Below, piece after piece: positions 3,965 through 40,770 of a stretch of 46,881 bases of DNA. Under the pieces are notes generated by a model. The model searched no databases, was not told where the DNA came from, and saw nothing but the letters and a program-made list of their open reading frames with translations. Every line of letters starts with the position of its first letter. Position 1 is the first letter of the stretch. The DNA comes from a virus (lineage: Duplodnaviria; Heunggongvirae; Uroviricota; Caudoviricetes): the IMG/VR virus record IMGVR_UViG_3300018065_000012. The stretch is one strand, 5' to 3'. The position numbers and the translations under genes are program-made.

Positions 3965-4036
3965 CCAGCACGCTTCAGTGATGGGATACTTCTCCATTTT
4001 AGGAAAAAAAGCAACCTGTCGCGTTTTTTGGTGCTG
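3965..4036 (+). ncRNA. Bracketed tRNA-array element A (minimal copy of the module-bracketed family)
   Basis: 5' module CCAGCAC-GCTTCAGTG...GATACTTC, 3' module GCGTTTTTTGGTGCTGG. Terminal helix CCAGCAC/GTGCTGG. No tRNA-like insert. Confidence 0.55.
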
Positions 4037-4041
4037 GTTTA

Positions 4042-4117
4042 TGGCCCTGTGATGTAATTGGAAACATGTCAGGTTTTCAGCCTGATTTTTGGGGTTCGAG
4101 TCCCCACAGGGTCACCA
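4042..4117 (+). tRNA. tRNA-Glu(UUC)
   Basis: Acceptor GGCCCTG/CAGGGTC (G2-U71), D ATGT/ACAT, anticodon stem TCAGG/CCTGA loop UUUUCAG, T-arm TGGGG-TTCGAGT-CCCCA, A73, CCA. Confidence 0.8.
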
Positions 4118-4127
4118 AAAAATAATT

Positions 4128-4261
4128 CCAGTACGCTTCAGTGAAGAGATACTTCGACTTGTAATCGAGAGGTTGCGGGTTCGAGTCCCGTCGGTTTGCT
4201 TCGGCAAACTGTAGCTCAATTGGCAGAGCGCTAAATACCTCTTTGCGTTTTTTGGTACTGG
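4128..4261 (+). ncRNA. Bracketed element B carrying a circularly permuted tRNA-Thr(UGU)-like core
   Basis: Order in DNA: 5' module, anticodon arm TTCGA-CUUGUAA-TCGAG, variable AGGTT, T-arm GCGGG-TTCGAGT-CCCGT, acceptor 3' strand CGGTTTG, then C-TTCG-G cap, acceptor 5' strand CAAACTG, TA, D-arm GCTC-AATTGGCA-GAGC, G26, 3' module. The D-arm, anticodon loop and variable loop are identical to the genuine tRNA-Thr(UGU) at 12586. Confidence 0.55.
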
Positions 4262-4269
4262 AATTTTTC

Positions 4270-4346
4270 GGGGATGAAGACGAAGTGGACGAGTCACTGC
4301 CCTGTCACGGCAGAGTAAGCGGGTTCAAGTCCCGTCATTCCCGCCA
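4270..4346 (+). tRNA. tRNA-Asp(GUC), second divergent copy
   Basis: Acceptor GGGGATG/CATTCCC (G4-U69), 3-bp D-stem, anticodon stem CTGCC/GGCAG loop CUGUCAC, T-arm GCGGG-TTCAAGT-CCCGT, G73, CCA. Confidence 0.7.
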
Positions 4347-4355
4347 AGTTTACGT

Positions 4356-4430
4356 TCCGGCGTGGCCCAACGGTAGGGCAGCTGGCTGTTAACCAGTTCA
4401 TTGGAAGTTCGACTCTTCCCGCCGGAGCCA
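4356..4430 (+). tRNA. tRNA-Asn(GUU)
   Basis: Acceptor TCCGGCG/CGCCGGA, D GCCC/GGGC, anticodon stem GCTGG/CCAGT loop CUGUUAA, T-arm GGAAG-TTCGACT-CTTCC, G73, CCA. Confidence 0.8.
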
Positions 4431-4433
4431 TTT

Positions 4434-4520
4434 GCGCAAGTGCTGGAACAGGTAGACAGGCCAGTTTGAGGGACTGGTGTCCGAAAGGGCGTGGGAGTTC
4501 GAATCTCCCCTTGCGCACCA
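4434..4520 (+). tRNA. tRNA-Leu(GAG), class II
   Basis: Acceptor GCGCAAG/CTTGCGC, anticodon stem CCAGT/ACTGG loop UUGAGGG, long variable arm TGTCCGAAAGGGCGT, T-arm GGGAG-TTCGAAT-CTCCC, A73, CCA. Confidence 0.8.
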
Positions 4521-4628
4521 AATAATTTTTTGATAAAGTGCAATAGGAAAGGAGAAACAACAAATGCTTGATCTCACTTGTACCAAAGGGGGTCTGCCAT
4601 GTTAGAGCCTTAACGAAAGGAGCTAAAC

Positions 4629-5018
4629 ATGAGCAGAACCTTCAAGAAGTACCCACGGCACTGGTATAGGCGTCCAAGCGGACGTAAGAGAGCGCTGGTG
4701 AATGGGGTAAGGAAACGGGCTGTGCCTCCCGACCCTTACGATGATATTCACCCCGACAGACAGTGCTTTAGTGCAGACAAAGTTGGTTTGGAGTTGCACA
4801 AGTTGGGATGGAGCAACGAAAAGATTGCCAAGCGTTTGAGTTGGAGATTCAAAGTTCCTTACTTGGTGATTTGGCACAGCATTATCCCCGACAAACCGTT
4901 TGATTGGTGGTGGTCTTGCAAGTGTAAGGAATGCAATGAAAAATACCAAGCTTGGCGGGAGTGGCGCGGAGGAATGCGTCTTTATTCTTGGGATGAGTTG
5001 GCAGTGGAACGCGGCTGA
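4629..5018 (+). CDS. hypothetical protein (basic N-terminus, Trp/Cys-rich)
   Basis: ATG with AAAGGAG SD; 129 aa; no motif recognised. Confidence 0.5.
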   Translation: MSRTFKKYPRHWYRRPSGRKRALVNGVRKRAVPPDPYDDIHPDRQCFSADKVGLELHKLGWSNEKIAKRLSWRFKVPYLVIWHSIIPDKPFDWWWSCKCKECNEKYQAWREWRGGMRLYSWDELAVERG

Positions 5019-5036
5019 GACAAGGAAGAATAGCGG

Positions 5037-5119
5037 TGTGACGAAACTGGTAAACGTGCATGGCTTAGAACCATGTGCCCTTTGTGGGCTTGAGGGTTCG
5101 ACTCCCTTCACCGCTACCA
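5037..5119 (+). tRNA. tRNA-Leu(UAG), class II
   Basis: Acceptor AGCGGTG/CACCGCT, anticodon stem CATGG/CCATG loop CUUAGAA, variable arm TGCCCTTTGTGGGCT, T-arm GAGGG-TTCGACT-CCCTT, A73, CCA. Confidence 0.8.
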
Positions 5120-5135
5120 TTTGAGGAAAGAGCAA

Positions 5136-5894
5136 ATGACAGATATCATTGTTCTGACTCACAACAAGGAAGAGAAAACCTGTCGTTGTTTTGAATCCAT
5201 TGCGTTGAATACAAAAAATTATCGGGTGCTTTGGGTTGACAATGGCTCAGAAGAAGCAAGCATTCAAAAGGTTTTGCCGTTTGCTGAAAAGCTTGAAAAC
5301 TTTCGCTTGATGCGCAACAAGGAAAATGAAGGGTTTTCAAAAGGGGTCAATTGCGCCTTGCGTCTTTTCTTGTTTGACGGATTATCTGATCACCTTATCT
5401 TGCTGAACAATGACGTTGTTGTGACGAAAGGTTGGCTTGATCATTTGATTGCTGCGATGAAGAAATCAGGTTTGGATGCAATTGGCCCAGTGACATCAGA
5501 CAATTGTCAACAAAGCCTTGAAGCATTACGGCCTCAATTGAGTAGAAAATTGCCGGAGTTCACGGACGAAACGACAGAGGAAAAAGCGAGAATATTATAT
5601 GAGGACGCAGGTAGTGCAGTTTATCCGGTGACTTCAATCTTGACTTTTTTCTGTGTGTTGTTTCGCAGGGAAACGGTTGAACAAATCGGGTTGCTTGATG
5701 AAAACATTTTCGCCTACGGTGAAGATAACGATTATTGTGAGCGAATGAAACGCACGGGGAAGAAAATGGGATTAGCTGTTGGAATTTACGTTGAGCATGA
5801 TCACGGCGCAACGGCTCAGTTGTTTGGAGACAGCTGGAAAGAGAAACAAATGAAAAAGGCTTCGGCGTATATCCAGCAGAAATATAATCTTTAG
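5136..5894 (+). CDS. Family 2 glycosyltransferase (GT-A fold)
   Basis: IIVLTHN...VDNGS...LLNNDVVV... and YGEDNDYCERM (DxD/ED motifs typical of GT2). ATG 5136 with GAGGAAAG SD; the ORF-track frame opens at TTG 5121. Confidence 0.7.
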   Translation: MTDIIVLTHNKEEKTCRCFESIALNTKNYRVLWVDNGSEEASIQKVLPFAEKLENFRLMRNKENEGFSKGVNCALRLFLFDGLSDHLILLNNDVVVTKGWLDHLIAAMKKSGLDAIGPVTSDNCQQSLEALRPQLSRKLPEFTDETTEEKARILYEDAGSAVYPVTSILTFFCVLFRRETVEQIGLLDENIFAYGEDNDYCERMKRTGKKMGLAVGIYVEHDHGATAQLFGDSWKEKQMKKASAYIQQKYNL

Positions 5895-5981
5895 GCGTTG
5901 TGGTGAAACTGGCAGACACGCATGATTCAGGGTCATGTTCCCTTTTTGGGAGTGAGGGTTCGACTCCCTCCAACGCCACCA
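5894..5981 (+). tRNA. tRNA-Leu(CAG), class II
   Basis: Acceptor GGCGTTG/CAACGCC, anticodon stem CATGA/TCATG loop UUCAGGG, variable arm TTCCCTTTTTGGGAG, T-arm GAGGG-TTCGACT-CCCTC, A73, CCA. The first G overlaps the upstream stop codon. Confidence 0.8.
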
Positions 5982-5983
5982 TC

Positions 5984-6058
5984 GGCCCTATGGAGTAATC
6001 GGAAACTCACCAGATTCTCAGTCTGGAATTCAGGGTTCGAGTCCCTGTAGGGTCACCA
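5984..6058 (+). tRNA. tRNA-Glu(CUC)
   Basis: Acceptor GGCCCTA/TAGGGTC, D GAGT/ACTC, anticodon stem CCAGA/TCTGG loop UUCUCAG, T-arm CAGGG-TTCGAGT-CCCTG, A73, CCA. Confidence 0.8.
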
Positions 6059-6089
6059 GCTTCGGATTATGAATTGCTTAAAAGATAAA

Positions 6090-6166
6090 GGGCGATTAGC
6101 TCAGCTGGACAGAGCACTTGCTCGACAAGCAAGGGGTCAGTGGTTCGAGTCCACTATCGCCCACCA
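6090..6166 (+). tRNA. tRNA-Val(GAC)
   Basis: Acceptor GGGCGAT/ATCGCCC, D GCTC/GAGC, anticodon stem CTTGC/GCAAG loop UCGACAA (C33 is unusual), T-arm AGTGG-TTCGAGT-CCACT, A73, CCA. Anchored to ORF-track frames 6069/6118. Confidence 0.75.
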
Positions 6167-6177
6167 TTGTAGGAATC

Positions 6178-6255
6178 GGACGCGTAGCTCAGATTGGTCA
6201 GAGCACTTCTCTTACAAGGAAGGGGTCACAGGTTCGAGTCCTGTCGCGTCCACCA
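6178..6255 (+). tRNA. tRNA-Val(UAC)
   Basis: Acceptor GGACGCG/CGCGTCC, D GCTC/GAGC, anticodon stem CTTCT/GGAAG loop CUUACAA, T-arm ACAGG-TTCGAGT-CCTGT, A73, CCA. Confidence 0.8.
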
Positions 6256-6273
6256 AATGAAAGGCGGTGGAAA

Positions 6274-6932: not shown

Positions 6933-6946
6933 ACGTGGAGGGGAAA

Positions 6947-7455: not shown

Positions 7456-7460
7456 TCAAG

Positions 7461-8232: not shown

Positions 8233-8430
8233 TTGAAATGGATAATCTTAATCCTGTTCATGTATATGATAATTGCTATGATATTTTTTCTGCATGAATG
8301 TTCTAAAATACAAAAGCATGTTCCGCCAAAACGTCTTCGACACTGTTCGGTTTACAGGACGCTTCAATGGTTTGAAGCAATTGTTCGAAGCGTTTTATGG
8401 CCGGTTGTGTTGATATTGAATATCTTTTAG
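8233..8430 (+). CDS. hypothetical small membrane protein (65 aa, TTG start)
   Basis: ORF-track frame. Strongly hydrophobic N-terminus (WIILILFMYMIIAMIFFL). Confidence 0.3.
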   Translation: MKWIILILFMYMIIAMIFFLHECSKIQKHVPPKRLRHCSVYRTLQWFEAIVRSVLWPVVLILNIF

Positions 8431-21885: not shown

Positions 21886-22650
21886 ATGACAAAGACAGTA
21901 GTTCCAGCGCATAGTATTGATGCGTTGATGAACAAAAAACTGTTGCGGAATCTGGAAATTCATAGCAACGCTGCCGCTGCAATATCCAAAGTTGATATTG
22001 ATTCTGGTATTGTTGCTTCTGAGGATGGCACAACCGTAATGAAAGTCAGCAGTCCTATCACTGTTGACATTGCTGCTTCCGGTGTCAATGGTCTTGACAC
22101 GGGCAGCGAAGCAGTTTCAACGTGGTATTACCTTTATATCATTTACAATCCAACGACTGATACCGAAGCTGGACTATTTTCGATTTCTGCTTCGAGTCCT
22201 ACAATGCCAAGTGGGTATACGAAAAAACGTTTGGTCAGCGCCATTTACAATCAATCTGGTGGTGACTTCTTAACATTCAAACAAGAGAACTACGAGTTTT
22301 ATCTGCTTGGTCGGCAAAGCGTCATATACGGTGGAACTGCTACGGCTTGGACTCCTCTAACAATGAGCAGTTATGTTCCAAGTAATATTTGTCGCACGGC
22401 TAAACTGAATTTGGTTGCTTTTTATGGCAGTACGAATGTTGGTACGGAATGGAGCCAACTTGCATGGAAAACAGGAACGGCTTGGACGCAGATTGATTGG
22501 CGTCGTGGAGTAAGTGGTGATTATATTGTGAATTCGCAAACATTTGATATACCATTGGACACGAAATCACCACCGACAATTTGGTATCGGAATTCAAATT
22601 CGGACTCACATTTTCGAGTATATGTCAACGGATGTAGATTGCAATTGTAG
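21886..22650 (+). CDS. Tandem paralog 1 of 6 (about 255-aa family, function unknown, probably virion-associated)
   Basis: Shared motifs: MTKTVVPAHSI, GLDTGSEAVSTWYYLYIIYNP, SSPTMPSGYTKKRL, PSNICRTAK, DIPLDTKSPPTIWY, C-terminal GCRLxL. Confidence 0.6.
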   Translation: MTKTVVPAHSIDALMNKKLLRNLEIHSNAAAAISKVDIDSGIVASEDGTTVMKVSSPITVDIAASGVNGLDTGSEAVSTWYYLYIIYNPTTDTEAGLFSISASSPTMPSGYTKKRLVSAIYNQSGGDFLTFKQENYEFYLLGRQSVIYGGTATAWTPLTMSSYVPSNICRTAKLNLVAFYGSTNVGTEWSQLAWKTGTAWTQIDWRRGVSGDYIVNSQTFDIPLDTKSPPTIWYRNSNSDSHFRVYVNGCRLQL

Positions 22651-22671
22651 AATCACTAAAGGACTTGACCG

Positions 22672-23439
22672 ATGACAAAGACAACAGTTCCAGCGCACAG
22701 TATGGAAGCGCTGATGAATAAAAAACTGTTGCGGAATCTGGAAATTCATAGCAACGCTGCCGCTGCGATTTCCAAGGTTGACATTGATTCTGGTCTTGTA
22801 GGCAGTGATGATGGAACGACTATAATGGAAGTTCCGAGTACCATTACGGTGGACATTGCGGCTTCAGGGGCTAATGGTCTTGATACAGGTTCAGAAGCGG
22901 TTTCGACTTGGTATTACTTGTACTTGATTTACAATCCAAGCACGGACACTGAGGCTGGATTGTTTTCAGCAAGCGCAAGCAGCCCCACGATGCCAAGTGG
23001 GTATACGAAGAAGCGTTTGATAAGCGCCGTCTATAATCATTCAGGTGGCGATTTTTTGACGTTCAGACAAGATGATTATGAATTTTATCAGCTTGGTTAT
23101 CAAAGTGTTTTAGCGGCTGGAACTGCTACGTCTTGGACTGCTGTTACAATGGGCAATTTTATTCCGAGTAATATTTGTCGCACAGCTAAAATGCTTGGGC
23201 TTGCTATTTACGGTGGTACGGCTGGCGTCAATAGCCGACAAAGCTATATTGCGTGGAAAACGGGAACAATTTGGACAGGTCTTATGTGGCGACGTGGGGC
23301 AAGTGGTGACCTTAATATCAATACGCAAACATTGGATATACCATTGGACACAAAATCACCGCCGACAATTTGGTATTATAACACACACGCAGCTTCAAAT
23401 TTTAATTTGTACGTTGTTGGATGTAGGCTGAACTTGTAA
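22672..23439 (+). CDS. Tandem paralog 2 of 6
   Basis: About 80% identical to paralog 1 by eye. Confidence 0.6.
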   Translation: MTKTTVPAHSMEALMNKKLLRNLEIHSNAAAAISKVDIDSGLVGSDDGTTIMEVPSTITVDIAASGANGLDTGSEAVSTWYYLYLIYNPSTDTEAGLFSASASSPTMPSGYTKKRLISAVYNHSGGDFLTFRQDDYEFYQLGYQSVLAAGTATSWTAVTMGNFIPSNICRTAKMLGLAIYGGTAGVNSRQSYIAWKTGTIWTGLMWRRGASGDLNINTQTLDIPLDTKSPPTIWYYNTHAASNFNLYVVGCRLNL

Positions 23440-23464
23440 AGAGAAATCTGGAAGAGGACTTGTA

Positions 23465-24229
23465 ATGACAAAGACAGTGCTTCCAGCGCATAGCATTGAA
23501 GTGGCGCTGAACGAAAAACTGTTGAAGGATTTGGAAATCGAATCCAATTCCTCAAACCCGACGTATCAGGTGGACATCAATTCTGGTATCGTTAGTAGTG
23601 AAGATGGAACTGTTGTGGTGGAGGTAACTTCACCAATTACAGTAGACATTACTGCTTCAGGAGTTAATGGACTCGATACGGGTTCAGAGGCAGTTTCAAC
23701 ATGGTATTATCTCTATATCATTTACAACTTGACAAGCGACACGGTTGCAGGACTTTTTTCGACAAGCGCAAGTTCGCCAACAATGCCGAGTGGGTACACA
23801 AAAAAGCGTTTGGTCAGTGCTATCTATAATCAATCTGGTGGTGATTTTTTGACCTTCAGACAAGATGATAACGAGTTTTATCTGCTTGGCTATCAAAGCA
23901 TCTTGTCTGGTGGAAGTGCTACCTCTTGGACTGCTGTAACGATGGGCAATTATGTTCCGAGCAATATTTGTCGCACGGTTAAACTCTCTTTGGTTTCCAC
24001 TTGGGGGGGGGCTGATGGCGGGTCAAAGGCTGCTTACCTTGGATGGAAAACAGGAACGATTTGGATGTCGTCTCGCTATCGTTACAGTTCCGGTGGTGAC
24101 TTGTATCGTAACTCGCATACATTTGATTTGCCATTAGACACAAAATCGCCACCGACGCTTTGGTATTATCAATCGTCATCAGTGTCAAGCCTCGCTTTGC
24201 TTGTTAATGGATGCAGACTGGATATATAA
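23465..24229 (+). CDS. Tandem paralog 3 of 6
   Basis: Same motif set; stop TAA overlaps the next start (TAATG). Confidence 0.6.
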   Translation: MTKTVLPAHSIEVALNEKLLKDLEIESNSSNPTYQVDINSGIVSSEDGTVVVEVTSPITVDITASGVNGLDTGSEAVSTWYYLYIIYNLTSDTVAGLFSTSASSPTMPSGYTKKRLVSAIYNQSGGDFLTFRQDDNEFYLLGYQSILSGGSATSWTAVTMGNYVPSNICRTVKLSLVSTWGGADGGSKAAYLGWKTGTIWMSSRYRYSSGGDLYRNSHTFDLPLDTKSPPTLWYYQSSSVSSLALLVNGCRLDI

Positions 24230-24987
24230 TGCCTGAAACTGAAATCAAAGCTGGACGCATTGACCCGTTGTTGACCAAGACGATGATACAGAGTCTTGAG
24301 ATACGTTGCAATTTTACGGACTTCGTTTACATTGACGCTGGCGTTGTCGGTTCAGATGACGGTGAGGAAATTATGGAAGTCACGGCCACTCTTTCTGTGG
24401 ATATTGACACGAACGGAGCGAACGGGCTGGACACAGGTTCACCAGCAGACAATACGTGGTATTATGTCTACGTCATAAGCAATTACACAACGGTTGCGGG
24501 TTTGCTTTCGACAAGTGCTTCTGCTCCGACAATGCCAAGTGGATATGTGAAGAAAAAAGCAGTAAGCAAATTGCGTCGTGGTACTGGCGCTTTTTACTTT
24601 GTAAGACAGTATAATGATTACGTGAAATATGCAAATAGGCTCAATGTCCTTACGAATGGAAGTGCGACATCTCGAACTCAAATCAGTCTGTCGAATTATG
24701 TTCCAGATGAAGCATACAGTGCCGACATCAATTGGAGATTCGAGCCTGATGGTACAAACATTCAAGCAAGCAGAGTGGGTTATGTTGAAGCCTTGAGTGG
24801 TTCGGCTCATCAGTGGTGTTACATGGGAATTGATGAGACGGCAAGCACAGTTTATCATTATCGCCAGTTTTGTCATATTGAATTACCGATGTATTATACC
24901 AGCCCAACAAGACTTTATTACTATCAAAGTGGTAGCGATGCTGATACTTCGCTTTGGGTTCAGGGATACAGATTGAAAGGGCTTTAG
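24229..24987 (+). CDS. Tandem paralog 4 of 6 (divergent)
   Basis: Retains GLDTGS...TWYY(V/L)Y...SAPTMPSGY(V/T)KK and C-terminal QGYRLKGL. The ORF track starts at 24211; the ATG at 24229 (TAATG junction) is preferred. Confidence 0.55.
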   Translation: MPETEIKAGRIDPLLTKTMIQSLEIRCNFTDFVYIDAGVVGSDDGEEIMEVTATLSVDIDTNGANGLDTGSPADNTWYYVYVISNYTTVAGLLSTSASAPTMPSGYVKKKAVSKLRRGTGAFYFVRQYNDYVKYANRLNVLTNGSATSRTQISLSNYVPDEAYSADINWRFEPDGTNIQASRVGYVEALSGSAHQWCYMGIDETASTVYHYRQFCHIELPMYYTSPTRLYYYQSGSDADTSLWVQGYRLKGL

Positions 24988-24991
24988 AGCA

Positions 24992-25744
24992 ATGGCTGAA
25001 ACAGTCGTACTTACAGAACGCATTCAGTCTGCATTGCTGAAGAAGGTAAATGGTCTTCGTGTCAGAGGAACAAGCGATACGGTTATAGCTATTGATTCGG
25101 GCGTTGTTGGTAGTGACGATGGTGACGTATGTATGGAAGTCACGTCCACAATTTCAGTGGATATTACGAATTCAGGTGCTAATGGATTGGATACGGGTGC
25201 GGCTGCGGCAAACACGTGGTATTACCTATTTTTGATTTATAATCCAACGACAGATACGGTTGCTGGATTGCTTTCAACGAGTCAAAGTTCGCCAACGATG
25301 CCTTTAGGATATACAAAGAAACGATGGATAAGTGCAGTGCGTCGAACCACTGTGTTGTTTCGATATACACAATGGAATGAAGAAATTTTGTTTGCTTACT
25401 ATATAGGCGTATTGAGCAATGGGAGTTCTACAAGCCGCACTCAAATCAGTTGCTCAAATTATGTTCCTGATGCTCATGCTTCTGCTTTTCTGGTTTTTGC
25501 AAATGCTACTTCATCAAATTTCCACGGAAGAGATATATGTACGATAGAGGAAGAAAGCGGCACCACGTACATGAGATTGTTCGCTGACTATGACGATGTT
25601 CCAACGCCGTTAAGTTTTATGAACCGAAACACTTGTAGCTGTTGGTTTCCAAACTATTATTCAACAGCCCGTGTGTACTATTACGTGAGTCATTCGCAAC
25701 AAGATTTAGACATTCTTATTCAAGGTTTCCAGTTGAGGTTATAA
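24992..25744 (+). CDS. Tandem paralog 5 of 6 (divergent)
   Basis: GANGLDTGAAAANTWYYLFLIYNPTTDT...SSPTMPLGYTKKR, C-terminal QGFQLRL. Confidence 0.55.
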   Translation: MAETVVLTERIQSALLKKVNGLRVRGTSDTVIAIDSGVVGSDDGDVCMEVTSTISVDITNSGANGLDTGAAAANTWYYLFLIYNPTTDTVAGLLSTSQSSPTMPLGYTKKRWISAVRRTTVLFRYTQWNEEILFAYYIGVLSNGSSTSRTQISCSNYVPDAHASAFLVFANATSSNFHGRDICTIEEESGTTYMRLFADYDDVPTPLSFMNRNTCSCWFPNYYSTARVYYYVSHSQQDLDILIQGFQLRL

Positions 25745-26499
25745 TGGCAGAGTTGGCCGTTGACATCAAGCGAATCAAGCAACTTCTGACAAAGAAGAAG
25801 TTGGACAATCTTGGAATCCAGTACAACAGTGCCAATGTTGTTCGGATTACAGATGGCGTTGTTGGAACTGATGATGGTGATGCTATCATGGAAGTCGGTT
25901 CTAACATCGACGTGGATATTTCAACGACTGGAGCAAACGCACTGGATACGGGTACGGTCAGCAATGATACTTGGTATTATCTCTTTCTCATTTTGAACCC
26001 GACGAATGGAACTGTTGCTGGATTGTTTTCATTGAGTGATACTGCCCCTACAATGCCTTCAGGATATACGAAGAAGCGACTTGTTAGTGTTCTTCGATAT
26101 TTCACAGCATCGTTTTCAAATTTCAGGCAATACAATTTTAGGGTGTACTATCCTCAAAATTATACCATCCTTTCTGGTGGGGGAAGCACGAGTCGGGTTC
26201 AACTAAACATAAGCAATTATGCGCCGAATGACTATACTCATTCTGCTCGACTTTTATTTATGGCGAACTGGAATAATGCTTTTGGAAACAGTGTAGTTTA
26301 TCTCGAAGCATTAAGTGGAAGCACCTATCATTACACAAGGGCTGGACTTTTTTCTGGTTCGTGGTGGTATAGATTCAGACAGACAAACGAAGCGGATGTA
26401 GGAATGATGTATGACAATCCCGTGCGTGTTTACTATTACACGGGCGATGCACAATGCCGATGCTCGATTTATGTCAAGGGCTACACGTTGAGATTATAA
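25744..26499 (+). CDS. Tandem paralog 6 of 6 (divergent)
   Basis: Starts at ATG 25744 (TAATG junction; the ORF-track frame opens at 25642). GANALDTGTVSNDTWYYLFLILNPTNGT...APTMPSGYTKKRL, C-terminal KGYTLRL. Confidence 0.55.
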   Translation: MAELAVDIKRIKQLLTKKKLDNLGIQYNSANVVRITDGVVGTDDGDAIMEVGSNIDVDISTTGANALDTGTVSNDTWYYLFLILNPTNGTVAGLFSLSDTAPTMPSGYTKKRLVSVLRYFTASFSNFRQYNFRVYYPQNYTILSGGGSTSRVQLNISNYAPNDYTHSARLLFMANWNNAFGNSVVYLEALSGSTYHYTRAGLFSGSWWYRFRQTNEADVGMMYDNPVRVYYYTGDAQCRCSIYVKGYTLRL

Positions 26500-26536
26500 C
26501 GTTTAGTAGAAGATACTCGAAAAGGAGAGAATAACA

Positions 26537-26752
26537 ATGGCACAGTGGTATGCACGGTACAATCAACTCGACAGTGACAAGGTGGAAGAAGCGGGATTTG
26601 TCGAGCAGTCGGAGCGTGATCGTTGGAGTGCTATGTCGGGCATGTCGGCTTGTGGTGGTTTCGATGATGAAATTCCGAACGACTTGATGGACATTGACGG
26701 CAACCCGAACTATTACTACAACACAGGCACGGGCGAAATTGTTCACCTGTAA
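26537..26752 (+). CDS. small acidic hypothetical protein (71 aa)
   Basis: AAAGGAGAG SD then ATG 26537. Confidence 0.5.
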   Translation: MAQWYARYNQLDSDKVEEAGFVEQSERDRWSAMSGMSACGGFDDEIPNDLMDIDGNPNYYYNTGTGEIVHL

Positions 26753-26819
26753 GTGTTGTGGGTTCTGAAAGGTTCTTGTCTGAAAGTCTATTCTTACGGC
26801 TGAGAAGTATGGAGAAGCA

Positions 26820-28055
26820 ATGCCGCATCTTTTGACTCAAGCCCAACAGAAGGAACAGGTGGCAGACCTTTCCTTGTATGTTGACCCTTCTGCATCGACC
26901 ATGACGGGGACAAATACTTCTGCTGTTACCAAGAAGTTGATTGACAGTGGCGGGGGTTTTTCGTCTTTGAAACCCCGTCAAGTAGTCGTCAATACCACTG
27001 ACCATACTGCTACAATTATTGATTACGTAGAAGATGACACGACACTCGTTTTGAAGAATCACATCTTTACCGCGACTTCAAAAGGCTATTCTATCGACAA
27101 CAATGCAGGAACTTCGGGTGACAAATTTAAGTATCCTCAATCAGCAATGGAAGCAGTACCAGAGACAATTGGCTTCTATCTTCATGTGTATCTTGCCGAT
27201 GGGACGTATAGCGAAATCGGAACAAGTGACATAGTGCTTGGTCGTGCAACAGTTTCAGATGCGTTTCTTTACATCAACAAAAAGATGGCGGCTGGTGGAC
27301 GTATTATAATCGAAGGCAACACGACGACTCCAGCCAACGTGCATTTTAACGGAACAACTCCATCTGCTGCTGCTGGTGTTTTAATTCAGAATGCTCAGAA
27401 AGTAGAAGTTGGAGGGTTGAAGGTATCCAACTGTACCTATGGGATTACTGCTGAAGAAAATTCATCTTTCAGGCTTTATGATGTTATTGCGACTGATTGT
27501 ACTTATGGAATTTCTTTGTTTGATGATTCGGATGGACAAGGTTGGCGGTTGATTTCTGGTCAAAGTGGGACAGGCAACACTTATGGCGTTTATATGGAGC
27601 GTGGATATTTCTACGTTTCCGATGAATCTGTTGGGTCAAGTTCATCCTCTTTGCGCTACAATGGATACAATATCTATCTAAAGACTTCGAGAATCAAAGT
27701 TATTGGAAATGCTACTGCCAATGTAAATCTTTCGGACTCGACAAATCAAGGCGTCTTTGCTACTGAAGGAAGTTCGCTTGAATTTGACCGCATTACAGTC
27801 GATAGTGCAGGGGCAGCGGGAATAGAGATAACATTTGAGAGCAGTGGAAGTGTAGCCAATTCTACTATCTCAAACAATACGGCTCAAGGAATTTTAGCGT
27901 TTAATAATTCCGTGATATACTCAGATACCAATACGGGTGCTGGAAGCACTTATGGTTTATCTGCTCAGAATGGTTCGGTAATCTCTAAGAATAGTACACA
28001 GCCTACGGGTACTGTAAGCAATGAACAAACGGTAAATGGTGGAGCGATTTACTAA
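26820..28055 (+). CDS. Tandem paralog 1 of 3: putative tailspike/depolymerase-like protein with right-handed beta-helix (pectate-lyase-like) repeats
   Basis: Conserved N-terminus (ADLSLYVD...TMTGTNTS...LKP.QVVVNT.D.TAT(I/V)(I/V)DY) followed by repeated (V/I)xNCTxGIxxxEN / NTYGxxxE beta-helix-like motifs; 411 aa. Confidence 0.55.
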   Translation: MPHLLTQAQQKEQVADLSLYVDPSASTMTGTNTSAVTKKLIDSGGGFSSLKPRQVVVNTTDHTATIIDYVEDDTTLVLKNHIFTATSKGYSIDNNAGTSGDKFKYPQSAMEAVPETIGFYLHVYLADGTYSEIGTSDIVLGRATVSDAFLYINKKMAAGGRIIIEGNTTTPANVHFNGTTPSAAAGVLIQNAQKVEVGGLKVSNCTYGITAEENSSFRLYDVIATDCTYGISLFDDSDGQGWRLISGQSGTGNTYGVYMERGYFYVSDESVGSSSSSLRYNGYNIYLKTSRIKVIGNATANVNLSDSTNQGVFATEGSSLEFDRITVDSAGAAGIEITFESSGSVANSTISNNTAQGILAFNNSVIYSDTNTGAGSTYGLSAQNGSVISKNSTQPTGTVSNEQTVNGGAIY

Positions 28056-28075
28056 ATAGGTGCAGGAGTTAGCGA

Positions 28076-29311
28076 ATGCCCCTTTTGACTCAAAACCAGA
28101 AAAAAGCGCAAGTTGCAGACCTGAGTTTGTATGTTGATAATTCTCAGTCCACAATGACAGGAACGAATACATCCGTTGTTTCCAATAAACTGATTGATTC
28201 GAGTGCAGATTTCTCGACGTTGAAACCGCATCAGGTAGTAGTGAACACAAGCGACCATACAGCGACAATCATTGACTATGTTGAAAACGATACTACAATA
28301 GTTCTGAAAGAGAATATTTTTACGGCGACTCCAAAGGGCTATTCCGTTGACAATCACACAGGTGCTTCAAGCGACAAATTCAAATATCCGCAATCGACAA
28401 TGGAATCTGTTCCTGCAAATATTGACTTTTATCTACACGTCTATATTGCTGACGGGACATACAGTGAGATTTCGGCAAGTGATATAGATACTATTCGTGG
28501 TAGCTTTGGAAAGGCTTTTCTTTTCATCAACAAAAGAATGAACGCTGGTGGGCGTATTGTTGTTGAAGGTAATACGACCACTCCCGCCAATGTTCTTTTC
28601 AATGGTACAACTCCATCGGCTGCTGTTGGTGTTCTTGTTCAAGATACTCAGAAGGTTGAAGTGAAAGGATTGAAAGTAACGAATTGTACGCATGGGATTG
28701 GTGTTGTCGAGAATTCTTTCTTGACTGTTTCCGATACCATTACAAACAGCAACAATAATGGGTTTACGGTCTATATGTACTCGTATGTTTTAGCCTCTCG
28801 GATAATTTCTGGCGAAAGTGGCGTTAAGAACACTTATGGTATATTGATGGAGTCGAGTACCTTCAATATTGACGATTCAGGTTCGGGAGCAAACTCGTCG
28901 TCGTTGCGTTACAACACTGACAACATCAATGCGTATTCTTCGACAGTCGCAGTTACAGGCAATGCTACCGCTAACGTTAATTTGTCCGATTCTACAAATT
29001 GGGGCGTCATTTTAAGAACATGCAATACAGCGATTCTTGACCGTGTTATTATTGACAGTGCGAGTTCTGGTGGGGCAATTCAAGTCAATTACGAAGGCAA
29101 TTTGAGTATCAGCAATTCTGTTATCTCAAACAATTCAACGAGAGGAATTACAGCTTATAGTAATTCCTTCGTATACTCAAGCAACAATACTGGTGCGGGT
29201 CAATCGTATGGTTTGGTTGCTCAACATGGTTCGGTTATTTTGAAGAACGGTACACAACCCACAGGAACAACGTCAAATGAACAAACATCAACAGGTGGAG
29301 CGATTTATTAA
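28076..29311 (+). CDS. Tandem paralog 2 of 3 (beta-helix tailspike-like)
   Basis: Same architecture; AGGAG SD. Confidence 0.55.
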   Translation: MPLLTQNQKKAQVADLSLYVDNSQSTMTGTNTSVVSNKLIDSSADFSTLKPHQVVVNTSDHTATIIDYVENDTTIVLKENIFTATPKGYSVDNHTGASSDKFKYPQSTMESVPANIDFYLHVYIADGTYSEISASDIDTIRGSFGKAFLFINKRMNAGGRIVVEGNTTTPANVLFNGTTPSAAVGVLVQDTQKVEVKGLKVTNCTHGIGVVENSFLTVSDTITNSNNNGFTVYMYSYVLASRIISGESGVKNTYGILMESSTFNIDDSGSGANSSSLRYNTDNINAYSSTVAVTGNATANVNLSDSTNWGVILRTCNTAILDRVIIDSASSGGAIQVNYEGNLSISNSVISNNSTRGITAYSNSFVYSSNNTGAGQSYGLVAQHGSVILKNGTQPTGTTSNEQTSTGGAIY

Positions 29312-29330
29312 GAAGGTGTAGGAGTCAGAA

Positions 29331-30569
29331 ATGCAGCATCTTTTAGTCAGAGCGCAACAGAAGGAAAAAGTCACAAGCCTTGACCTTTACGTTGATGCTT
29401 CTCAAACAACGACGACAGGAACCAACACATCTGTTGTTAGTGGAAAGCTGGTTGATTCCACCGCAGATTTTCGGTCTTTGAAACCGCATCAAGTGGTTGT
29501 CAACACAACTGATGGTACGGCTACGGTTGTCGACTATGCGGAAAACAGAACAACGTTGGTTTTGAAGAACCACATTTTCACAGCAACAAGCAAAGCATAT
29601 AGTATTGATGACCATACAGGTTCTTCAAGCGACAAATTCAAGTATCCTCAATCAGCTTTAGAAGCGATGCCTTCAACAATTGGTATTATTTCTCGTGTCT
29701 ATATTGCTGACGGTACATATAATGTGATGGGAACAACTGATGTAATTTGTAATCGTGGCGATGTTACAAAAGCTATCCTTTACGTCAACAAAAGTTTTAC
29801 TGCTGGTGGTCGTATAGACATTATAGGCAATGTATCAACTCCGGCGAATGTTGCTTTTAATGGTACAACTCCTTCTTCGAATGCTGGTGTATTCGTTCAA
29901 GGCAGTCAGAAAATAGAAGTTGAAGGAATCAAGGTAACGAATTGTGTGCATGGGATTACTGCTCAAGAAAAATCATCGGTAGAGGTTTTCGATACGATTA
30001 CAAATAGCAACACTTATGGGTTGTCTGTTTTTTCTCAATCGGTTATGGATTGTTTTAGGGTAATTTCTGGCGAGAGTGGTGCGGGAAATTCTTATGGCGC
30101 ATACCTCGAAGACAGCAATTGTTACATTGCAGATTCAGCTTCAGGAGCAAATTCGTCTTCGCTTCGTTATAATACGACAAACAATATCTATGCGGTGTTT
30201 TCAAGATTGAGGGCGTTGGGCAATGTTACTGCCAATGTGAACTTGTCCAATGCTACGGGATGGGGAGTAATTGCAAGCAGAGGCAGCACGGTAGATTTTG
30301 ACTATGTAACGATTGACAGTTCGGGTGCAGGGGGTTTTCAGGCTACATATGAGAGCAATGCCAGTTTAAGGGATTCCGTTGTTTCAAATAATACCACTTG
30401 GGGCATTTCAGCCGACCTTAATTCGTATGTGAACTCCCGTGATATGAGTGGTGCTGGAAATGATTATGGTTTGGTTTCTGAACTTGGCTCCGTTGTTCAG
30501 AAAGTCGGTACACAGCCCACAGGAGTATCAGGAAACGAATTGACAGCTACGGGCGGTACGATTATCTAA
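29331..30569 (+). CDS. Tandem paralog 3 of 3 (beta-helix tailspike-like)
   Basis: Same architecture; AGGAG SD. Confidence 0.55.
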   Translation: MQHLLVRAQQKEKVTSLDLYVDASQTTTTGTNTSVVSGKLVDSTADFRSLKPHQVVVNTTDGTATVVDYAENRTTLVLKNHIFTATSKAYSIDDHTGSSSDKFKYPQSALEAMPSTIGIISRVYIADGTYNVMGTTDVICNRGDVTKAILYVNKSFTAGGRIDIIGNVSTPANVAFNGTTPSSNAGVFVQGSQKIEVEGIKVTNCVHGITAQEKSSVEVFDTITNSNTYGLSVFSQSVMDCFRVISGESGAGNSYGAYLEDSNCYIADSASGANSSSLRYNTTNNIYAVFSRLRALGNVTANVNLSNATGWGVIASRGSTVDFDYVTIDSSGAGGFQATYESNASLRDSVVSNNTTWGISADLNSYVNSRDMSGAGNDYGLVSELGSVVQKVGTQPTGVSGNELTATGGTII

Positions 30570-34137: not shown

Positions 34138-34271
34138 AAGGCACGCTTCAGTGAAGAGTTACTTCCCTTCGGCGGACGAAGTTCAGGTTCGATTCCTGAC
34201 CCTCCAACCATGATGGAGGGTAGTGTAATGGTAGCACGCGTAAAATATCTCTTTGCGTCTTTTGGTGCCTT
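34138..34271 (+). ncRNA. Bracketed element C1 with a permuted tRNA-like core (acceptor closed by an ACCATGA loop that encodes the discriminator and CCA)
   Basis: Terminal helix AAGGCAC/GTGCCTT; 5' module GCTTCAGTGAAGAGTTACTTC; T-arm TCAGG-TTCGATT-CCTGA; CCCTCCA-ACCATGA-TGGAGGG; D-arm GTGT-AATGGTA-GCAC; 3' module ...CTCTTTGCGTCTTTTGG. The anticodon region is aberrant. Confidence 0.5.
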
Positions 34272-35786: not shown

Positions 35787-35962
35787 GCTGGAAAGATTTT
35801 CTTTACGGCGCGGCATCTGTTCTCGACTTGTCTGGTTCAATGGGCAATGCGCAAGTGAATGAAATTTTGCGCAAGTCTGACGCGGAAGCATTGAGGTCAG
35901 ATTGGGAAGCAGTTGGACAAGACATGTGGAAGGCGATTGAACAATCTGAAGATGTCGGGTGA
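35783..35962 (+). CDS. small acidic hypothetical protein (59 aa), translationally coupled to cd
   Basis: ATGA overlap with the cd stop; MSWKDFLYGAASVLDLSGSMGNAQVNEILRKSDAEALRSDWEAVGQDMWKAIEQSEDVG*. The stop lies inside the next tRNA. Confidence 0.45.
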   Translation: MSWKDFLYGAASVLDLSGSMGNAQVNEILRKSDAEALRSDWEAVGQDMWKAIEQSEDVG

Positions 35963-36038
35963 GCGCAGCTGGTGCTGTGAGTGGCCTGCAAAGCCATTTG
36001 GCCTTTGGGTCCAACTGGTTCGATTCCAGCATCCGACT
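35954..36038 (+). tRNA. tRNA-Sec-like (8/4 'allo-tRNA' architecture) tRNA with GCA (Cys) anticodon
   Basis: 8-bp acceptor GTCGGGTG/CATCCGAC; 6-bp D-stem CGCAGC/GCTGTG with 4-nt loop TGGT; 6-bp anticodon stem AGTGGC/GCCATT with loop CUGCAAA; long variable arm TGGCCTTTGGGTCCAA; 4-bp T-stem CTGG/CCAG with loop TTCGATT; U73; no encoded CCA. Confidence 0.5.
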
Positions 36039-36056
36039 CTAATTTGGAGAACATGA

Positions 36057-37613: not shown

Positions 37614-37629
37614 CTTTAGGAAAAGGCTG

Positions 37630-37764: not shown

Positions 37765-37765
37765 A

Positions 37766-38082: not shown

Positions 38083-38087
38083 TTTAA

Positions 38088-38161: not shown

Positions 38162-38223
38162 AAATTAAAGATGAAACGGAGATATATGATGAGCCAATCA
38201 CCTTTTGTTCGGGGGATTACATC

Positions 38224-38481: not shown

Positions 38482-39274
38482 AGAAGCACGCAAACTTGTT
38501 TTGAAATCATTCAACAAAAGTGATTTCTATTACAACCATCAATCGCCGCATGGCTATACAAACTTCATTGACGGGATGGCGTGGGTTGGTTTATTGTGCG
38601 GCGCATGTCATCTTGTGGATGACAAAGAGTTGGCGGCATTAGCAGAAAACTACTTGAGAATGCTTTTGAAAGTTGGACCGGATGCAAGAAATTATGCGCC
38701 GATGAAAGTAAGAGACGACTGGATCAAATCTGAAACAGCTCCCGGATTTTGGTACCGTAAAAAGCCGCAGTCCTTCGCGGGGCCAGCGGCTTTATTGTTT
38801 GCTATCAACTGCGGCGCAAAATTGGATAACCCCTTCAACATTGAATCACGTGCCAAGTGGATGCGTTTCTTAAATCCATTCTTTGGTTATCTTGTGCGTT
38901 GGTTTCATTGGTTCAGACAGCATATCAATAGTCAGTTTATCGCTCATTTGATTAACGATTCCAAACCGCCAAGCTCAATGCTTTGGTTGTGCGAGGAAAA
39001 TCCTTTTTTCAGCGCTATTGCTGGAATTGAATGCAGTGTTGAATACCCGAAATCATGGAGCCGGTTTCAAAAGTATGAAACAAAAGACGTGGACGATATT
39101 CAACCGCTGAAAAACCGGAAACCATCAGCTTGGATTTTCAGAAGTTGGCCCAAGGCCGAATACACTGGCGCACTTCCTTACGCGGGCAGTGCTTATACGC
39201 CAACGGCAATGGTTGTTGGTGAATATTTGCAACAGCATTTGAGGAAGAAAAATGCCAAAGTACAAGACAGTTGA
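38471..39274 (+). CDS. hypothetical protein (267 aa, Trp/Phe-rich)
   Basis: Overlaps the upstream gene by 11 nt. No motif recognised. Confidence 0.5.
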   Translation: MTLEEARKLVLKSFNKSDFYYNHQSPHGYTNFIDGMAWVGLLCGACHLVDDKELAALAENYLRMLLKVGPDARNYAPMKVRDDWIKSETAPGFWYRKKPQSFAGPAALLFAINCGAKLDNPFNIESRAKWMRFLNPFFGYLVRWFHWFRQHINSQFIAHLINDSKPPSSMLWLCEENPFFSAIAGIECSVEYPKSWSRFQKYETKDVDDIQPLKNRKPSAWIFRSWPKAEYTGALPYAGSAYTPTAMVVGEYLQQHLRKKNAKVQDS

Positions 39275-39491
39275 GGAACTTGCGCAAGCATTCCAAACAG
39301 GTGAGTTTGGAGCAGATGGTCAAGTTATCAAGATTGAATCGGATGACATAAACGCTTCATTGGTTCGGGTAACTTGCGCAGAGGAAAGTCCTGACGAGTT
39401 TGAAATAATGTTCGAAGGATACGTACAAGGCGGTTATACAAAAGTGAAAAACGAGCTTGGGCCGTCTTTTGGAAGAGCGAAAAAAGAATGA
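39252..39491 (+). CDS. hypothetical acidic protein (79 aa)
   Basis: Overlaps the upstream gene by 23 nt. Confidence 0.45.
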   Translation: MPKYKTVEELAQAFQTGEFGADGQVIKIESDDINASLVRVTCAEESPDEFEIMFEGYVQGGYTKVKNELGPSFGRAKKE

Positions 39492-39494
39492 CGT

Positions 39495-39571
39495 CGGGGT
39501 GTGGCTCAGCTTGGTAGAGCGCTTGACTGGGGGTCAAGAGGTCGCTGGTTCAAATCCAGTCACCCCGACCA
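39495..39571 (+). tRNA. tRNA-Pro(GGG)
   Basis: Acceptor CGGGGTG/CACCCCG, D GCTC/GAGC, anticodon stem CTTGA/TCAAG loop CUGGGGG, T-arm GCTGG-TTCAAAT-CCAGT, A73, CCA. Confidence 0.8.
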
Positions 39572-39586
39572 TTTTGGAAACGGATA

Positions 39587-39814
39587 ATGATAGACAAAAA
39601 GCAAATAGAAATCGAAACACTAAAGCATAAAGTCAACGAACAAAAAGCGTTCATAATGCATTTGAAACGACTTTATGGCAGCGCGAGGCGGTGGGAACTT
39701 TCAAGAACGACACAGTGCCACAAGTGCCACGTCGACGCGGATGCTGAATTTTTTGCATTCATGAGAGCAATGCCTCATATTGAATGGGACAACTGGGGAA
39801 ACGCTAAAAAATGA
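39587..39814 (+). CDS. hypothetical protein (75 aa)
   Basis: ORF-track frame; Cys/His pairs (CHKCH). Confidence 0.45.
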   Translation: MIDKKQIEIETLKHKVNEQKAFIMHLKRLYGSARRWELSRTTQCHKCHVDADAEFFAFMRAMPHIEWDNWGNAKK

Positions 39815-40113
39815 GTTGGGCGAAGTATGCAAAAGAAACGTTGAAAAAGGGTCTTGACGCGGCTGTAAAGCCTCGTGGAAGCTCAATGAAGCCAAAGATT
39901 GAAAGTGGTGACGTTGTAACCATTGCCCCTTGTGACCCGTTCAGACTCAAGGTGGATGATATTGTTTTGGTTACAGTAAAAGGGAAAGACTATTTGCATT
40001 TGATCAAGGCGGTTGATAGCAAAAGGTTTTTGATTGGAAACAATCGTGGCGGGATAAATGGCTGGGTTGGCTGGAACTCAATTCATGGAAAAGCGGTAGA
40101 GGTTTCAAAATGA
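39811..40113 (+). CDS. S24/S26-like serine peptidase fold protein (LexA/UmuD/signal-peptidase-like catalytic domain only)
   Basis: GSSMKPKIESGDVVTI (cf. GDSMxPxxxxGDxxxV) and a downstream Lys in HLIKAV. ATGA overlap with the upstream gene. Confidence 0.45.
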   Translation: MSWAKYAKETLKKGLDAAVKPRGSSMKPKIESGDVVTIAPCDPFRLKVDDIVLVTVKGKDYLHLIKAVDSKRFLIGNNRGGINGWVGWNSIHGKAVEVSK

Positions 40114-40646
40114 TTCGACGTATCAACTTGTACGCTGGCCCATGTGCAGGAAAGTCGACCATTGCGGCGCATGTGTTTTCTCATTTCAGAGCCAAGCAAG
40201 TCAACATTGAGCTTGTGACAGAATATGTGAAATCTTGGGCATATGAAGAGCGCAAAATTACATCGTATGATCAATTGTACTTACTCGCAAAACAGTTGCG
40301 GCAAGAGGATTTAATTTTGCGAAACGGAGTTGACCTAATCGTAACGGATTCCCCGATTTTACTTTCTGCTTGTTACGCGCAGAAATATGGGTTTCCAAGC
40401 GTTTCTGCGTTGCGGGAAATTGCTGCTGAGTTTGAGAAAACATACCCGTCGTTAAACATTTTTATCGAACGCGGAAGGACGCCTTACAATCAAAGTGGTC
40501 GTTACGAGACTTACGAACAAGCAGTTGAGATGGATGCGGCAATTGAAAAAACCATTTTTGCTGCTGGGGTTAAAGAGTTGTTCAGCGTATCATTGGATAC
40601 TGAAATAATTATCAAATTGATTGAAACAAAGTTAGAGACTTTTTAA
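40110..40646 (+). CDS. P-loop NTPase (predicted kinase/AAA-like ATPase)
   Basis: Walker A GPCAGKST near the N-terminus. ATGA overlap with the upstream gene. Confidence 0.55.
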   Translation: MIRRINLYAGPCAGKSTIAAHVFSHFRAKQVNIELVTEYVKSWAYEERKITSYDQLYLLAKQLRQEDLILRNGVDLIVTDSPILLSACYAQKYGFPSVSALREIAAEFEKTYPSLNIFIERGRTPYNQSGRYETYEQAVEMDAAIEKTIFAAGVKELFSVSLDTEIIIKLIETKLETF

Positions 40647-40654
40647 TTTTTCCC

Positions 40655-40682
40655 TTGAAAGCTGTCGGCTTGGTTGTATAAT
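40655..40682 (+). promoter_or_regulatory. sigma70-like promoter TTGAAA-N16-TATAAT (copy 4)
   Basis: TTGAAA 40655-40660, spacer ending GGTTG, TATAAT 40677-40682. Confidence 0.55.
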
Positions 40683-40705
40683 AAAACAGTGGTCCAGCAA
40701 ATAAT

Positions 40706-40770
40706 TCGACACGCTTCAGCGCAAAGATACTTCTTGGTATAGAAAAGCTTTGCTCGATTTTTGGTGTCGA
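40706..40770 (+). ncRNA. Bracketed element D (minimal copy) in its own promoter-to-hairpin unit
   Basis: Terminal helix TCGACAC/GTGTCGA; 5' module GCTTCAGCGCAAAGATACTTC; inner helix GCAAAG/CTTTGC; 3' module TCGATTTTTGG. Confidence 0.55.

Follow-up and report, generated by a model that had tools for sequence, protein, structure and literature searches.

The window analyzed here, a 46,881-nucleotide stretch of DNA from a tailed phage (Caudoviricetes; IMG/VR virus record IMGVR_UViG_3300018065_000012), carries six plus-strand loci within and near its tRNA arrays that probably encode modular phage ribonucleoprotein (RNP) RNAs. These RNAs appear to follow the plan of the Y RNA-like RNAs YrlA and YrlB with a swapped protein-binding handle, and we infer both their processing and their protein binding. 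The Y RNA-like plan and the tRNA-like domain that goes with it are known, and the family is not a categorically new RNA. Novelty lies in the handle and its apparent independence of Ro60 genes, in the number of copies, and in the variety of payloads that the handle encloses.

A preliminary description of this DNA had reported six loci sharing a 5′ and a 3′ module and ending in complementary 7-mers, and these are all present in the sequence. Copy A (3965–4037) is a short form in which the shared scaffold holds a 22-nt hairpin (scaffold covariance model score 61.2 bits), and copy B (4128–4261) combines the scaffold with what sequence and fold identify as a complete permuted tRNA mimic. Copies C1 (34138–34271), C2 (34281–34388, 54.8 bits), and C3 (34405–34514, 52.5 bits) hold complete or partial versions of the same mimic, while copy D (40706–40770, 57.5 bits) is a short form with a 14-nt hairpin and stands alone as a gene. 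The boundaries first given hold for B, C1, C2, and D; A and C3 each end one base later. Likewise, A and D were first taken to be payload-free, whereas they carry the hairpins just mentioned, and the gap between GYG and WTACTTC in the 5′ module measures 5 nt rather than 7–8 nt.

Folded singly, all six copies form the same scaffold, in which a 7-bp helix (P1) is followed by an internal loop with a 6-nt GCUUCA strand opposite an 8-nt GWYUUUUG strand, an 8-bp helix (P2), an (A/U)UACUUC junction, and a variable insert. In copy B, the 5′ strand of P1 (4128–4134) pairs with 4255–4261 and the 5′ strand of P2 (4141–4148) with 4239–4246; between them lies the 5′ internal-loop strand GCUUCA (4135–4140), which corresponds to alignment columns 8–13 and is invariant or nearly so. 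The conserved junction AUACUUC occupies 4149–4155, and the 3′ internal-loop strand GUUUUUUG occupies 4247–4254. Family-wide, the consensus of this 3′ strand is GNYUUUUG, the internal loop is asymmetric (6/8 nt), and pyrimidines predominate in each of the handle's three conserved unpaired strands.

The window contains six matches to the 5′ motif ACGCTTCAGYGN6TACTTC, compared with 0.00 expected from 100 shuffles, and weaker 5′-module matches at 8358 and 39351 are without a 3′ partner. The handle has no Rfam match. A scaffold covariance model was searched against the window and other contigs, and it finds copies of the scaffold elsewhere. The model spans payloads of up to ~65 nt and misses B and C1, so it is a detector for short and medium forms only; within that range it finds no copy in the window beyond the six.

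The P1/P2 scaffold is a selected RNA structure on the plus strand, with compensatory covariation in both helices. The alignment comprises 44 distinct scaffolds, taken as the 5′ 28 nt and the 3′ 23 nt and free of gaps over the resulting 51 nt. Standard pairs fill 98.2% of the paired cells, compared with 73.4% in shuffles and 34–60% in slid registers, although this percentage is inflated and partly circular because at least six pairs per helix were required for membership. The count of pair types is not circular: 13 of the 15 scaffold pairs show changes on both sides, and the raw pattern matches already split, before any pairing filter, into those with 7/7 and those with 2–5/7 P1 pairs. The covariation score is 0.817 versus 0.298 for shuffled alignments (0/500 shuffles reach the observed value), and RNAalifold, given no input structure, arrives at precisely these two helices, P1 and P2 (covariation term −5.7 kcal/mol). 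The compensatory changes first seen in the closing helix thus hold after homologs are added, and the covariation of the second helix, first noted in B, C1, and D, is wider than described and extends to all six copies.

The covariation also indicates which strand is read. G-U pairs make up 88 of the 660 paired cells (13%); because each of these would be an A-C mismatch on the opposite strand, the scaffold is read as RNA from the tRNA strand and is not a DNA-level feature. Scaffold positions C7, C9, U11, C12, G14, U23, C25–C28, U42, G44, and G45 are invariant. At the junction, UAC is conserved; of the 44 scaffolds, 25 have A in front of it, 15 have U, and 4 have C, so that a strict YUAY is found in 19/44.

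A relaxed search requiring both helices recovered 45 unique members with identical geometry on at least 15 viral or metagenome contigs, and one more copy was found later by the covariance model in locus L080. These numbers bear out the earlier description of a multi-copy family encoded together with phage tRNAs, which had rested on the six copies in the window. One 253-kb viral contig (IMGVR_UViG_3300029288_000063) contains at least eight copies. True relatives found by the pattern scan come from viral and metagenome contigs only. The 18 matches in 185,579 representative bacterial and archaeal genomes, a scan that covered one length class (payloads of 93–123 nt), are all false, with 2–5 of 7 P1 pairs, and many metagenome pattern matches are false in the same way. 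A 159-nt set from Acidobacteria/Terriglobia was also rejected, as it is an open reading frame (ORF) with third-position variation; we take this ORF to resemble squalene-hopene cyclase. The scaffold is described neither in Rfam nor in the literature that we searched.

The genomic setting is that of phage tRNA genes. The window has two dense plus-strand tRNA arrays, with 47 tRNAs called by ARAGORN and 46 by Rfam, separated by sugar-modification and tail-fiber-like genes. Across the family, members lie in same-strand tRNA arrays at a median gap of 10–11 nt to the next tRNA or element, in agreement with the tRNA-like spacing first noted in the window. None of the elements is followed by CCA, which is encoded in 256 of the 264 neighboring tRNAs. 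The related loci also encode tmRNAs, reported by Rfam at the gathering threshold.

Copy D departs from the earlier statement that all copies sit in promoter-driven tRNA operons. It lies outside a tRNA operon, with the nearest tRNA 1.1 kb away and the nearest long form at a distance of ~6 kb, and is preceded by a near-consensus sigma-70-like promoter of its own on the plus strand (40655–40682, TTGAAA-16 nt-TATAAT, 11/12 matches). Directly after it, the plus strand is predicted to fold into a 13-bp G+C-rich stem with a ~37-nt loop, followed by UUCUCUU (40781–40843), which may mark the end of the D transcript or may be another structured element; a simple terminator scan did not call this stem.

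The window phage recurs in ENA, Logan, and JGI assemblies, and because its contigs reach 338 kb (ena:ERZ27256780:k141_931436), it is a jumbo phage. Xanthomonas phage XacN1 was considered as a complete scaffold-bearing genome and has no scaffold. In its tRNA region (L164, 14819–15238 and 16212–16625), an unannotated 2.5-kb gap contains a tmRNA (107.8 bits) and a GOLLD RNA (227 bits).

The insert of copy B opens with a 5-bp hairpin (loop CUUGUAA) and AGGUU; a T arm (GCGGGUUCGAGUCCCGU) follows, then an acceptor-like stem of 7 bp with a UUCG cap, and finally a D arm (GUAGCUCAAUUGGCAGAGC). Together these parts form a complete tRNA body that is circularly permuted and has a closed acceptor end. C1 likewise runs from the hairpin through the T arm and a closed acceptor stem to the D arm; C2 lacks a V hairpin and consists of a T arm followed by a closed stem of 8 bp and a D-like hairpin; C3 has an anticodon-like hairpin (loop CUUAAAA), a T arm, and a short stem, and its D arm is degenerate. 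Because the T arm of B matches tRNA-Asp of the window and its D arm matches tRNA-Thr(UGU), the B body is a mosaic, and its origin by recent duplication of a single window tRNA was rejected. D-arm types also vary from copy to copy.

Across the family, payloads range from 12 to 172 nt. A permuted tRNA-like order, with the T arm before the D arm, is found in 26 of the 45 members; by a crude motif test, seven have a T arm only and ten have neither motif. One of the remaining two has a large insert with a spurious D-motif match. The other encloses a tRNA body in normal order of D arm, anticodon arm (loop UUGCAAG), and T arm (L080 2872–2737, minus strand). Members at L080 3095–2961 and L034 2087–2233 are permuted elsewhere (T arm, closed stem, D arm, anticodon arm), and the scaffold therefore joins the tRNA body at differing positions. 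The first hairpin was considered as a mimic of the anticodon arm, which holds in only ~9/30 members; in its behavior it resembles the V region of YrlA, which is poorly conserved.

Two features of individual payload segments were also observed. The last 8 nt before the 3′ strand of P2 (for example, window 4231–4238) are A-rich in all members, with 48% A compared with 26% payload-wide; examples are UAAAUAC and UAAAAUAU, and canonical YrlAs carry GCGCUAAAAA at this place. The members at L041 3164–2942 and L080 3905–3696 (both minus strand) share a ~170-nt payload with conserved blocks GGCUCUAAGGUAGC... and ...CUGUACYGGAAGCC. It has no Rfam match, and it was rejected as an rRNA mimic, the only similarity being an exact match of 10–12 nt between its first block and positions 1925–1936 of Escherichia coli 23S rRNA.

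At the gathering threshold, Rfam reports only tRNAs in the window. Under permissive filters that admit sub-threshold matches, YrlA (RF02553; gathering score 69 bits) is the sole model with a meaningful match: the core of B matches it at 33.9 bits (4168–4232, model positions 24–84 of 114) and the core of C1 at 24.4 bits (34182–34237). The genuine YrlA of mycobacteriophage Bxz1, located ~190 nt upstream of the Ro-like gene product gp220, reaches only 32.5 bits (model positions 23–87), so the 69-bit threshold does not discriminate phage YrlAs. In a blastn search of B against GenBank phages, the best matches cover query positions 27–112 at 76–80% identity, with E values down to 4e-13. RNAs matched in this way lie 0.2–1.3 kb from Ro-like genes in Gordonia phages Sixama and Forza, Mycobacterium phage Tonenili, and Microbacterium phage Magritte.

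The order of parts in the Bxz1 and Sixama RNAs can be followed from the outside inward and back. A closing stem is followed by a conserved 5′ loop, a stem, UUAYC, a small hairpin, AGGUY, and the T arm; then come a closed acceptor stem, the D arm, GCGCUAAA, and the return strands of the stem, the 3′ loop, and the closing stem. Each of the two phages additionally encodes short companion RNAs that lack the tRNA-like part. This plan is matched by the published features of YrlA and YrlB (Chen et al. 2014, PMC4201824), and the crystal structure of YrlA places the terminal stem in correspondence with the anticodon stem (bioRxiv 10.1101/312249). In the loci described here, the long stem formed by pairing of the ends is present in all six copies as P1 and P2 and covaries over the 44 scaffolds; P2 corresponds to the anticodon stem in the tRNA-like domain of YrlA, and the AUACUUC junction falls at the same place as the YUAY of YrlA. 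The order of V hairpin, T arm, closed acceptor stem, and D arm is found in B, C1, and 26/45 members and partially in C2 and C3.

From this motif-for-motif match with Bxz1 and Sixama, together with the published features, it follows that the payload and the overall plan are Y RNA-like. As judged from sequence, the payload of B and C1 is homologous to the tRNA-like domain of YrlA, and A and D are counterparts of the short YrlB-type form. The preliminary description had recognized no described RNA family in these loci; that statement does not stand, as their architecture and the B/C1 core are those of YrlA and YrlB, and phage YrlA genes set among tRNAs also occur beside a Ro gene in Sixama. In Sixama, we observed three canonical Y RNA-like genes among the tRNAs downstream of the Ro-like gene (L084, ~5530–5610, 5685–5815, and 5892–6024). 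They are unannotated in GenBank, and the equivalent locus is labeled tRNA-Leu in some sister phages.

The handle is distinct from that of known Y RNA-like RNAs. The putative contact motif for Ro60/Rsr, GNCGAAN0-1G, lies near the 5′ end of YrlA, and the YrlA genes known from bacteria and phages share a strand with Ro60 and are no more than ~4 kb away from it (PMC4201824). The GNCGAA motif is present in Bxz1 as GGCCGAGAG and in Sixama as GGCCGAAG. Our family has an invariant GCUUCAG instead, faced by a conserved strand rich in U: in 44/44 scaffolds, GNCGAAN0-1G is absent and C-GCUUCA-G, invariant or nearly so, stands in its place.

Linkage to Ro60 is also absent from the DNA surveyed. Neither the window with 10 kb on each side nor the homolog loci have a Ro60/TROVE gene. 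Pfam scans of the window ORFs found no TROVE domain, no TROVE gene occurs in the 10 kb past each window end, and a tblastn search with the Bxz1 Ro protein against the window and the homolog loci (611 kb) gave nothing better than E 0.22. Conversely, a pattern search of 195 TROVE-encoding viral loci (79 + 116; 1.93 Mb) found no real copy of the handle, and the covariance model found no handle in 996 kb of TROVE loci (best match 16 bits, E 0.33); the same model gives 17 matches of 39–61 bits in 151 kb of scaffold-bearing loci. Canonical Y RNAs of the form GNCGAA...GGUUAUC adjoin TROVE in the TROVE loci and were not found in the scaffold-bearing loci. Because each handle is confined to its own set of loci, the two types do not mix in the loci examined. 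A TROVE protein search yielded no protein traced to the 338-kb phage among the 120 of 4,549 matches listed.

We propose that copies A to C3 would be transcribed together with the surrounding tRNAs and released as RNase P and 3′-processing enzymes cut the flanking tRNAs, 5–16 nt away, while D would be made from its own promoter. The P1/loop/P2 unit would act as a protein-binding handle, since the Ro60-binding stem of Y RNAs is analogous and since, in this family, the helices covary and the loops are invariant. The exchangeable payload would form an effector end that engages tRNA-binding factors, as suggested by the published modification of YrlA by TruB and DusA and by the cleavage of M. smegmatis YrlA by RNase P (PMC4201824; bioRxiv 10.1101/312249).

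The partner of the handle is somewhat more likely to be a different protein than a Ro60 that is unlinked or divergent, given that neither the defining motif nor the gene linkage holds. More specifically, the GCUUCA/GNYUUUUG stem could dock a non-Ro60 protein to form a new phage RNP, with one handle and interchangeable payloads that, as a jumbo phage infects its host, recruit, retarget, or sequester tRNA-binding or RNA-surveillance factors of the host; we put this forward tentatively, as possible though short of an even chance. Among the payloads exchanged in this way would be plain hairpins, tRNA mimics that differ in topology and identity, and the conserved ~170-nt domain. To our knowledge, the Y RNAs of bacteria and phages have been described only as Ro60 partners, and we know of no function assigned to them in phages.

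Several observations weigh against our reading of these loci as Yrl-type RNAs with a swapped handle. For the window phage, the survey covers ~67 kb, whereas the genome measures at least 338 kb, so that a distant Ro60 gene is possible, and the neighboring genes yield no candidate partner. Members were picked by sequence pattern and at least six pairs per helix, a selection that divergent handles would escape. Because A and D are without any tRNA-like part and two members carry the unrelated ~170-nt payload, a tRNA-mimic function is not the whole story.

If the partner were Ro60 after all, the six loci would encode ordinary Ro60/Rsr-bound Y RNAs, with the Ro60 gene lying either in another part of the phage genome (at least 338 kb) or in the host and with an RNA-binding surface that has co-diverged with the stem motif. 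The identity of plan with YrlA/YrlB and the homology of the tRNA-like core would then be expected, some jumbo phages do encode TROVE proteins, and the surveyed DNA is a minor part of the genome. However, the 5′ motif GNCGAAN0-1G is absent, known YrlAs lie within ~4 kb of Ro60 whereas the DNA surveyed here contains no TROVE gene, and the handle occurs in 0/195 TROVE neighborhoods, and we consider this alternative rather unlikely. A quite unlikely alternative places the function in the payload itself, as a stand-alone tRNA decoy for tRNA-targeting nucleases or tRNA-binding defense proteins that the scaffold only stabilizes and releases. The differing D arms and anticodon-like loops suggest mimicry of different tRNA identities, the carrier phages are rich in tRNAs and tmRNA, and the closed acceptor stem and missing CCA rule out decoding; yet only ~9/30 first hairpins look like an anticodon arm, ~10/45 members are without a tRNA-like part, and a stem that merely stabilizes needs no invariant loop and junction.

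The remaining alternatives concern how the elements are processed or propagated. Ribozymes are known in phage tRNA regions, and the invariant unpaired nucleotides between two helices, together with the tight packing among tRNAs that makes processing necessary, could suggest a self-cleaving or self-processing cassette that excises or circularizes the payload from the tRNA transcript. This is very improbable given that no Rfam ribozyme matches even at E values up to 10, that the loop and junction strands lack conserved complementarity for a catalytic pseudoknot, and that release is already explained by processing of the flanking tRNAs. It is extremely improbable that the loci are circularly permuted tRNA genes of the Cyanidioschyzon merolae type that mature to functional tRNAs. 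T arm, acceptor stem, and D arm do occur in permuted order in 26/45 payloads, and B has every tRNA arm, but the acceptor stem is capped by a 4–9-nt loop or a long hairpin and is without discriminator or CCA, and the scaffold would stay between the D arm and the anticodon arm. In addition, the 6-nt and 8-nt loops between 7-bp and 8-bp helices are no 3-4-3 bulge-helix-bulge, the short members have no tRNA body, and the tRNA set of the phage is already near-complete. The chance that these are miniature transposable elements, acting as DNA with terminal inverted repeats, is next to negligible. In favor are the multiple copies of the elements and the inverted-repeat arrangement of their outer 7-mers; against this, the termini differ between copies with compensating changes, the 13% of paired cells with G-U are strand-specific, all copies lie on the tRNA strand with tRNA-like spacing, the flanks show no consistent target-site duplication, and the payloads are diverse and not near-identical. 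The elements do not have the character of insertion sequence (IS) terminal inverted repeats, which the preliminary description had named among the identities that would speak against its reading.

Genes that recur next to the elements encode HNH endonucleases, a cytidylyltransferase-like protein, a PD-(D/E)XK nuclease, and a helix-turn-helix (HTH) protein; the other neighboring proteins have no TROVE, La, Sm/Hfq, or RtcB domain. A small basic protein encoded at 4629–5018 (plus strand) is conserved, has a very basic N terminus (RRPRGxKRAxxNGVRKRAVPP) and a C-terminal CxCxxC motif, and has no Pfam match. Homologs are encoded at L007 5914–5549, L055 2082–2420, and L056 5766–6104. In four contig groups besides the window, its gene lies on the same strand as the scaffold copies and at most 1.3 kb from them, and in L056 it lies between two copies. 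It is missing from several scaffold-rich loci and is syntenic rather than demonstrably linked; this protein is a possible, unproven partner of the scaffold RNAs.

Other features of the window and of related contigs were observed. An 86-nt tRNA at 35954–36039 (plus strand), called tRNA-Cys(GCA) by ARAGORN, passes the Rfam selenocysteine-tRNA model (60.6 bits; gathering score 47) and not the general tRNA model, and it may be a Sec-like or otherwise atypical tRNA that combines a long arm with a Cys anticodon. Six tandem paralogous ORFs of ~254 aa (21886–26499, plus strand), two of which were scanned and gave a weak match to the second domain of Mtd, are followed by three tandem ORFs of ~411 aa (26820–30569, plus strand), one of which was scanned and contains a beta-helix domain; together, the region from 21886 to 30569 looks like a diversified receptor-binding or tail-fiber cassette. 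A gene for a caspase-family (Peptidase_C14) protein is found at 93–1103 (plus strand), and its homolog at L049 1655–3799 is split by an intein with an HNH endonuclease. After an ORF at 41003–41494, a gene with collagen-like G-x-y repeats extends from 41491 to beyond 46881 (plus strand); in L168 (10489–16173) this gene encodes 1,894 aa. The repeats generate many spurious ORFs on both strands.

If the partner of the handle is a different protein, the Y RNA design would be a general modular platform and not specific to Ro60. The invariant 51-nt handle offers a direct bait for a search for that partner. With this family, the tRNA arrays of giant phages also gain a class of non-decoding tRNA mimics, which bears on why these arrays are carried, and elements that tRNA finders and Rfam leave unannotated are now flagged.

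Ordinary tRNAs (RF00005) are cloverleaves whose open 7-bp acceptor stem ends in a free NCCA; the elements receive no ARAGORN call, are not called by Rfam at the gathering threshold, and have a capped acceptor stem and no CCA. The T4 species 1 and 2 RNAs (rnaC and rnaD), to which the loci had first been likened, are also small stable RNAs of no known function encoded at the end of a phage tRNA cluster. The likeness holds for genomic context and not for homology: rnaC and rnaD contain none of the motifs GCUUCA, UACUUC, and YUUUUGG, do not show the permuted order of T arm, acceptor stem, and D arm, and give no YrlA match; rnaC has a 3′ T arm in normal order. In the permuted tRNAs of C. merolae and in two-piece permuted tmRNA, the 3′ half of the tRNA likewise precedes the 5′ half in the gene, and there are weak matches to the Rfam tmRNA_permuted model (13–14 bits). 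Unlike these, the family has no bulge-helix-bulge, free CCA end, or coding or tag region, and we infer that its permutation would be permanent in the mature fold and not a processing intermediate.

The closest comparison is with the Y RNA-like RNAs themselves. Like YrlA, the long forms have an end-paired stem with a conserved internal loop, a (Y/W)UAY junction, a variable hairpin, AGGUY, a T arm, a closed acceptor-like stem, a D arm, and an A-rich linker that leads back to the stem, and like the YrlA genes of Sixama, their genes are interleaved with tRNAs. Unlike YrlA, they have GCUUCA/GNYUUUUG in the stem loop where YrlA has GNCGAAN0-1G/...UAACAYGCU, their geometry is rigid (7 bp, 6/8-nt loop, 8 bp), and they number up to eight or more copies per genome, with several payload topologies. 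Copies A and D and the short members elsewhere resemble YrlB in keeping only the handle and a small hairpin and in lying near long forms; they differ from it in the sequence of the handle and, for D, in being an independent promoter-driven gene.

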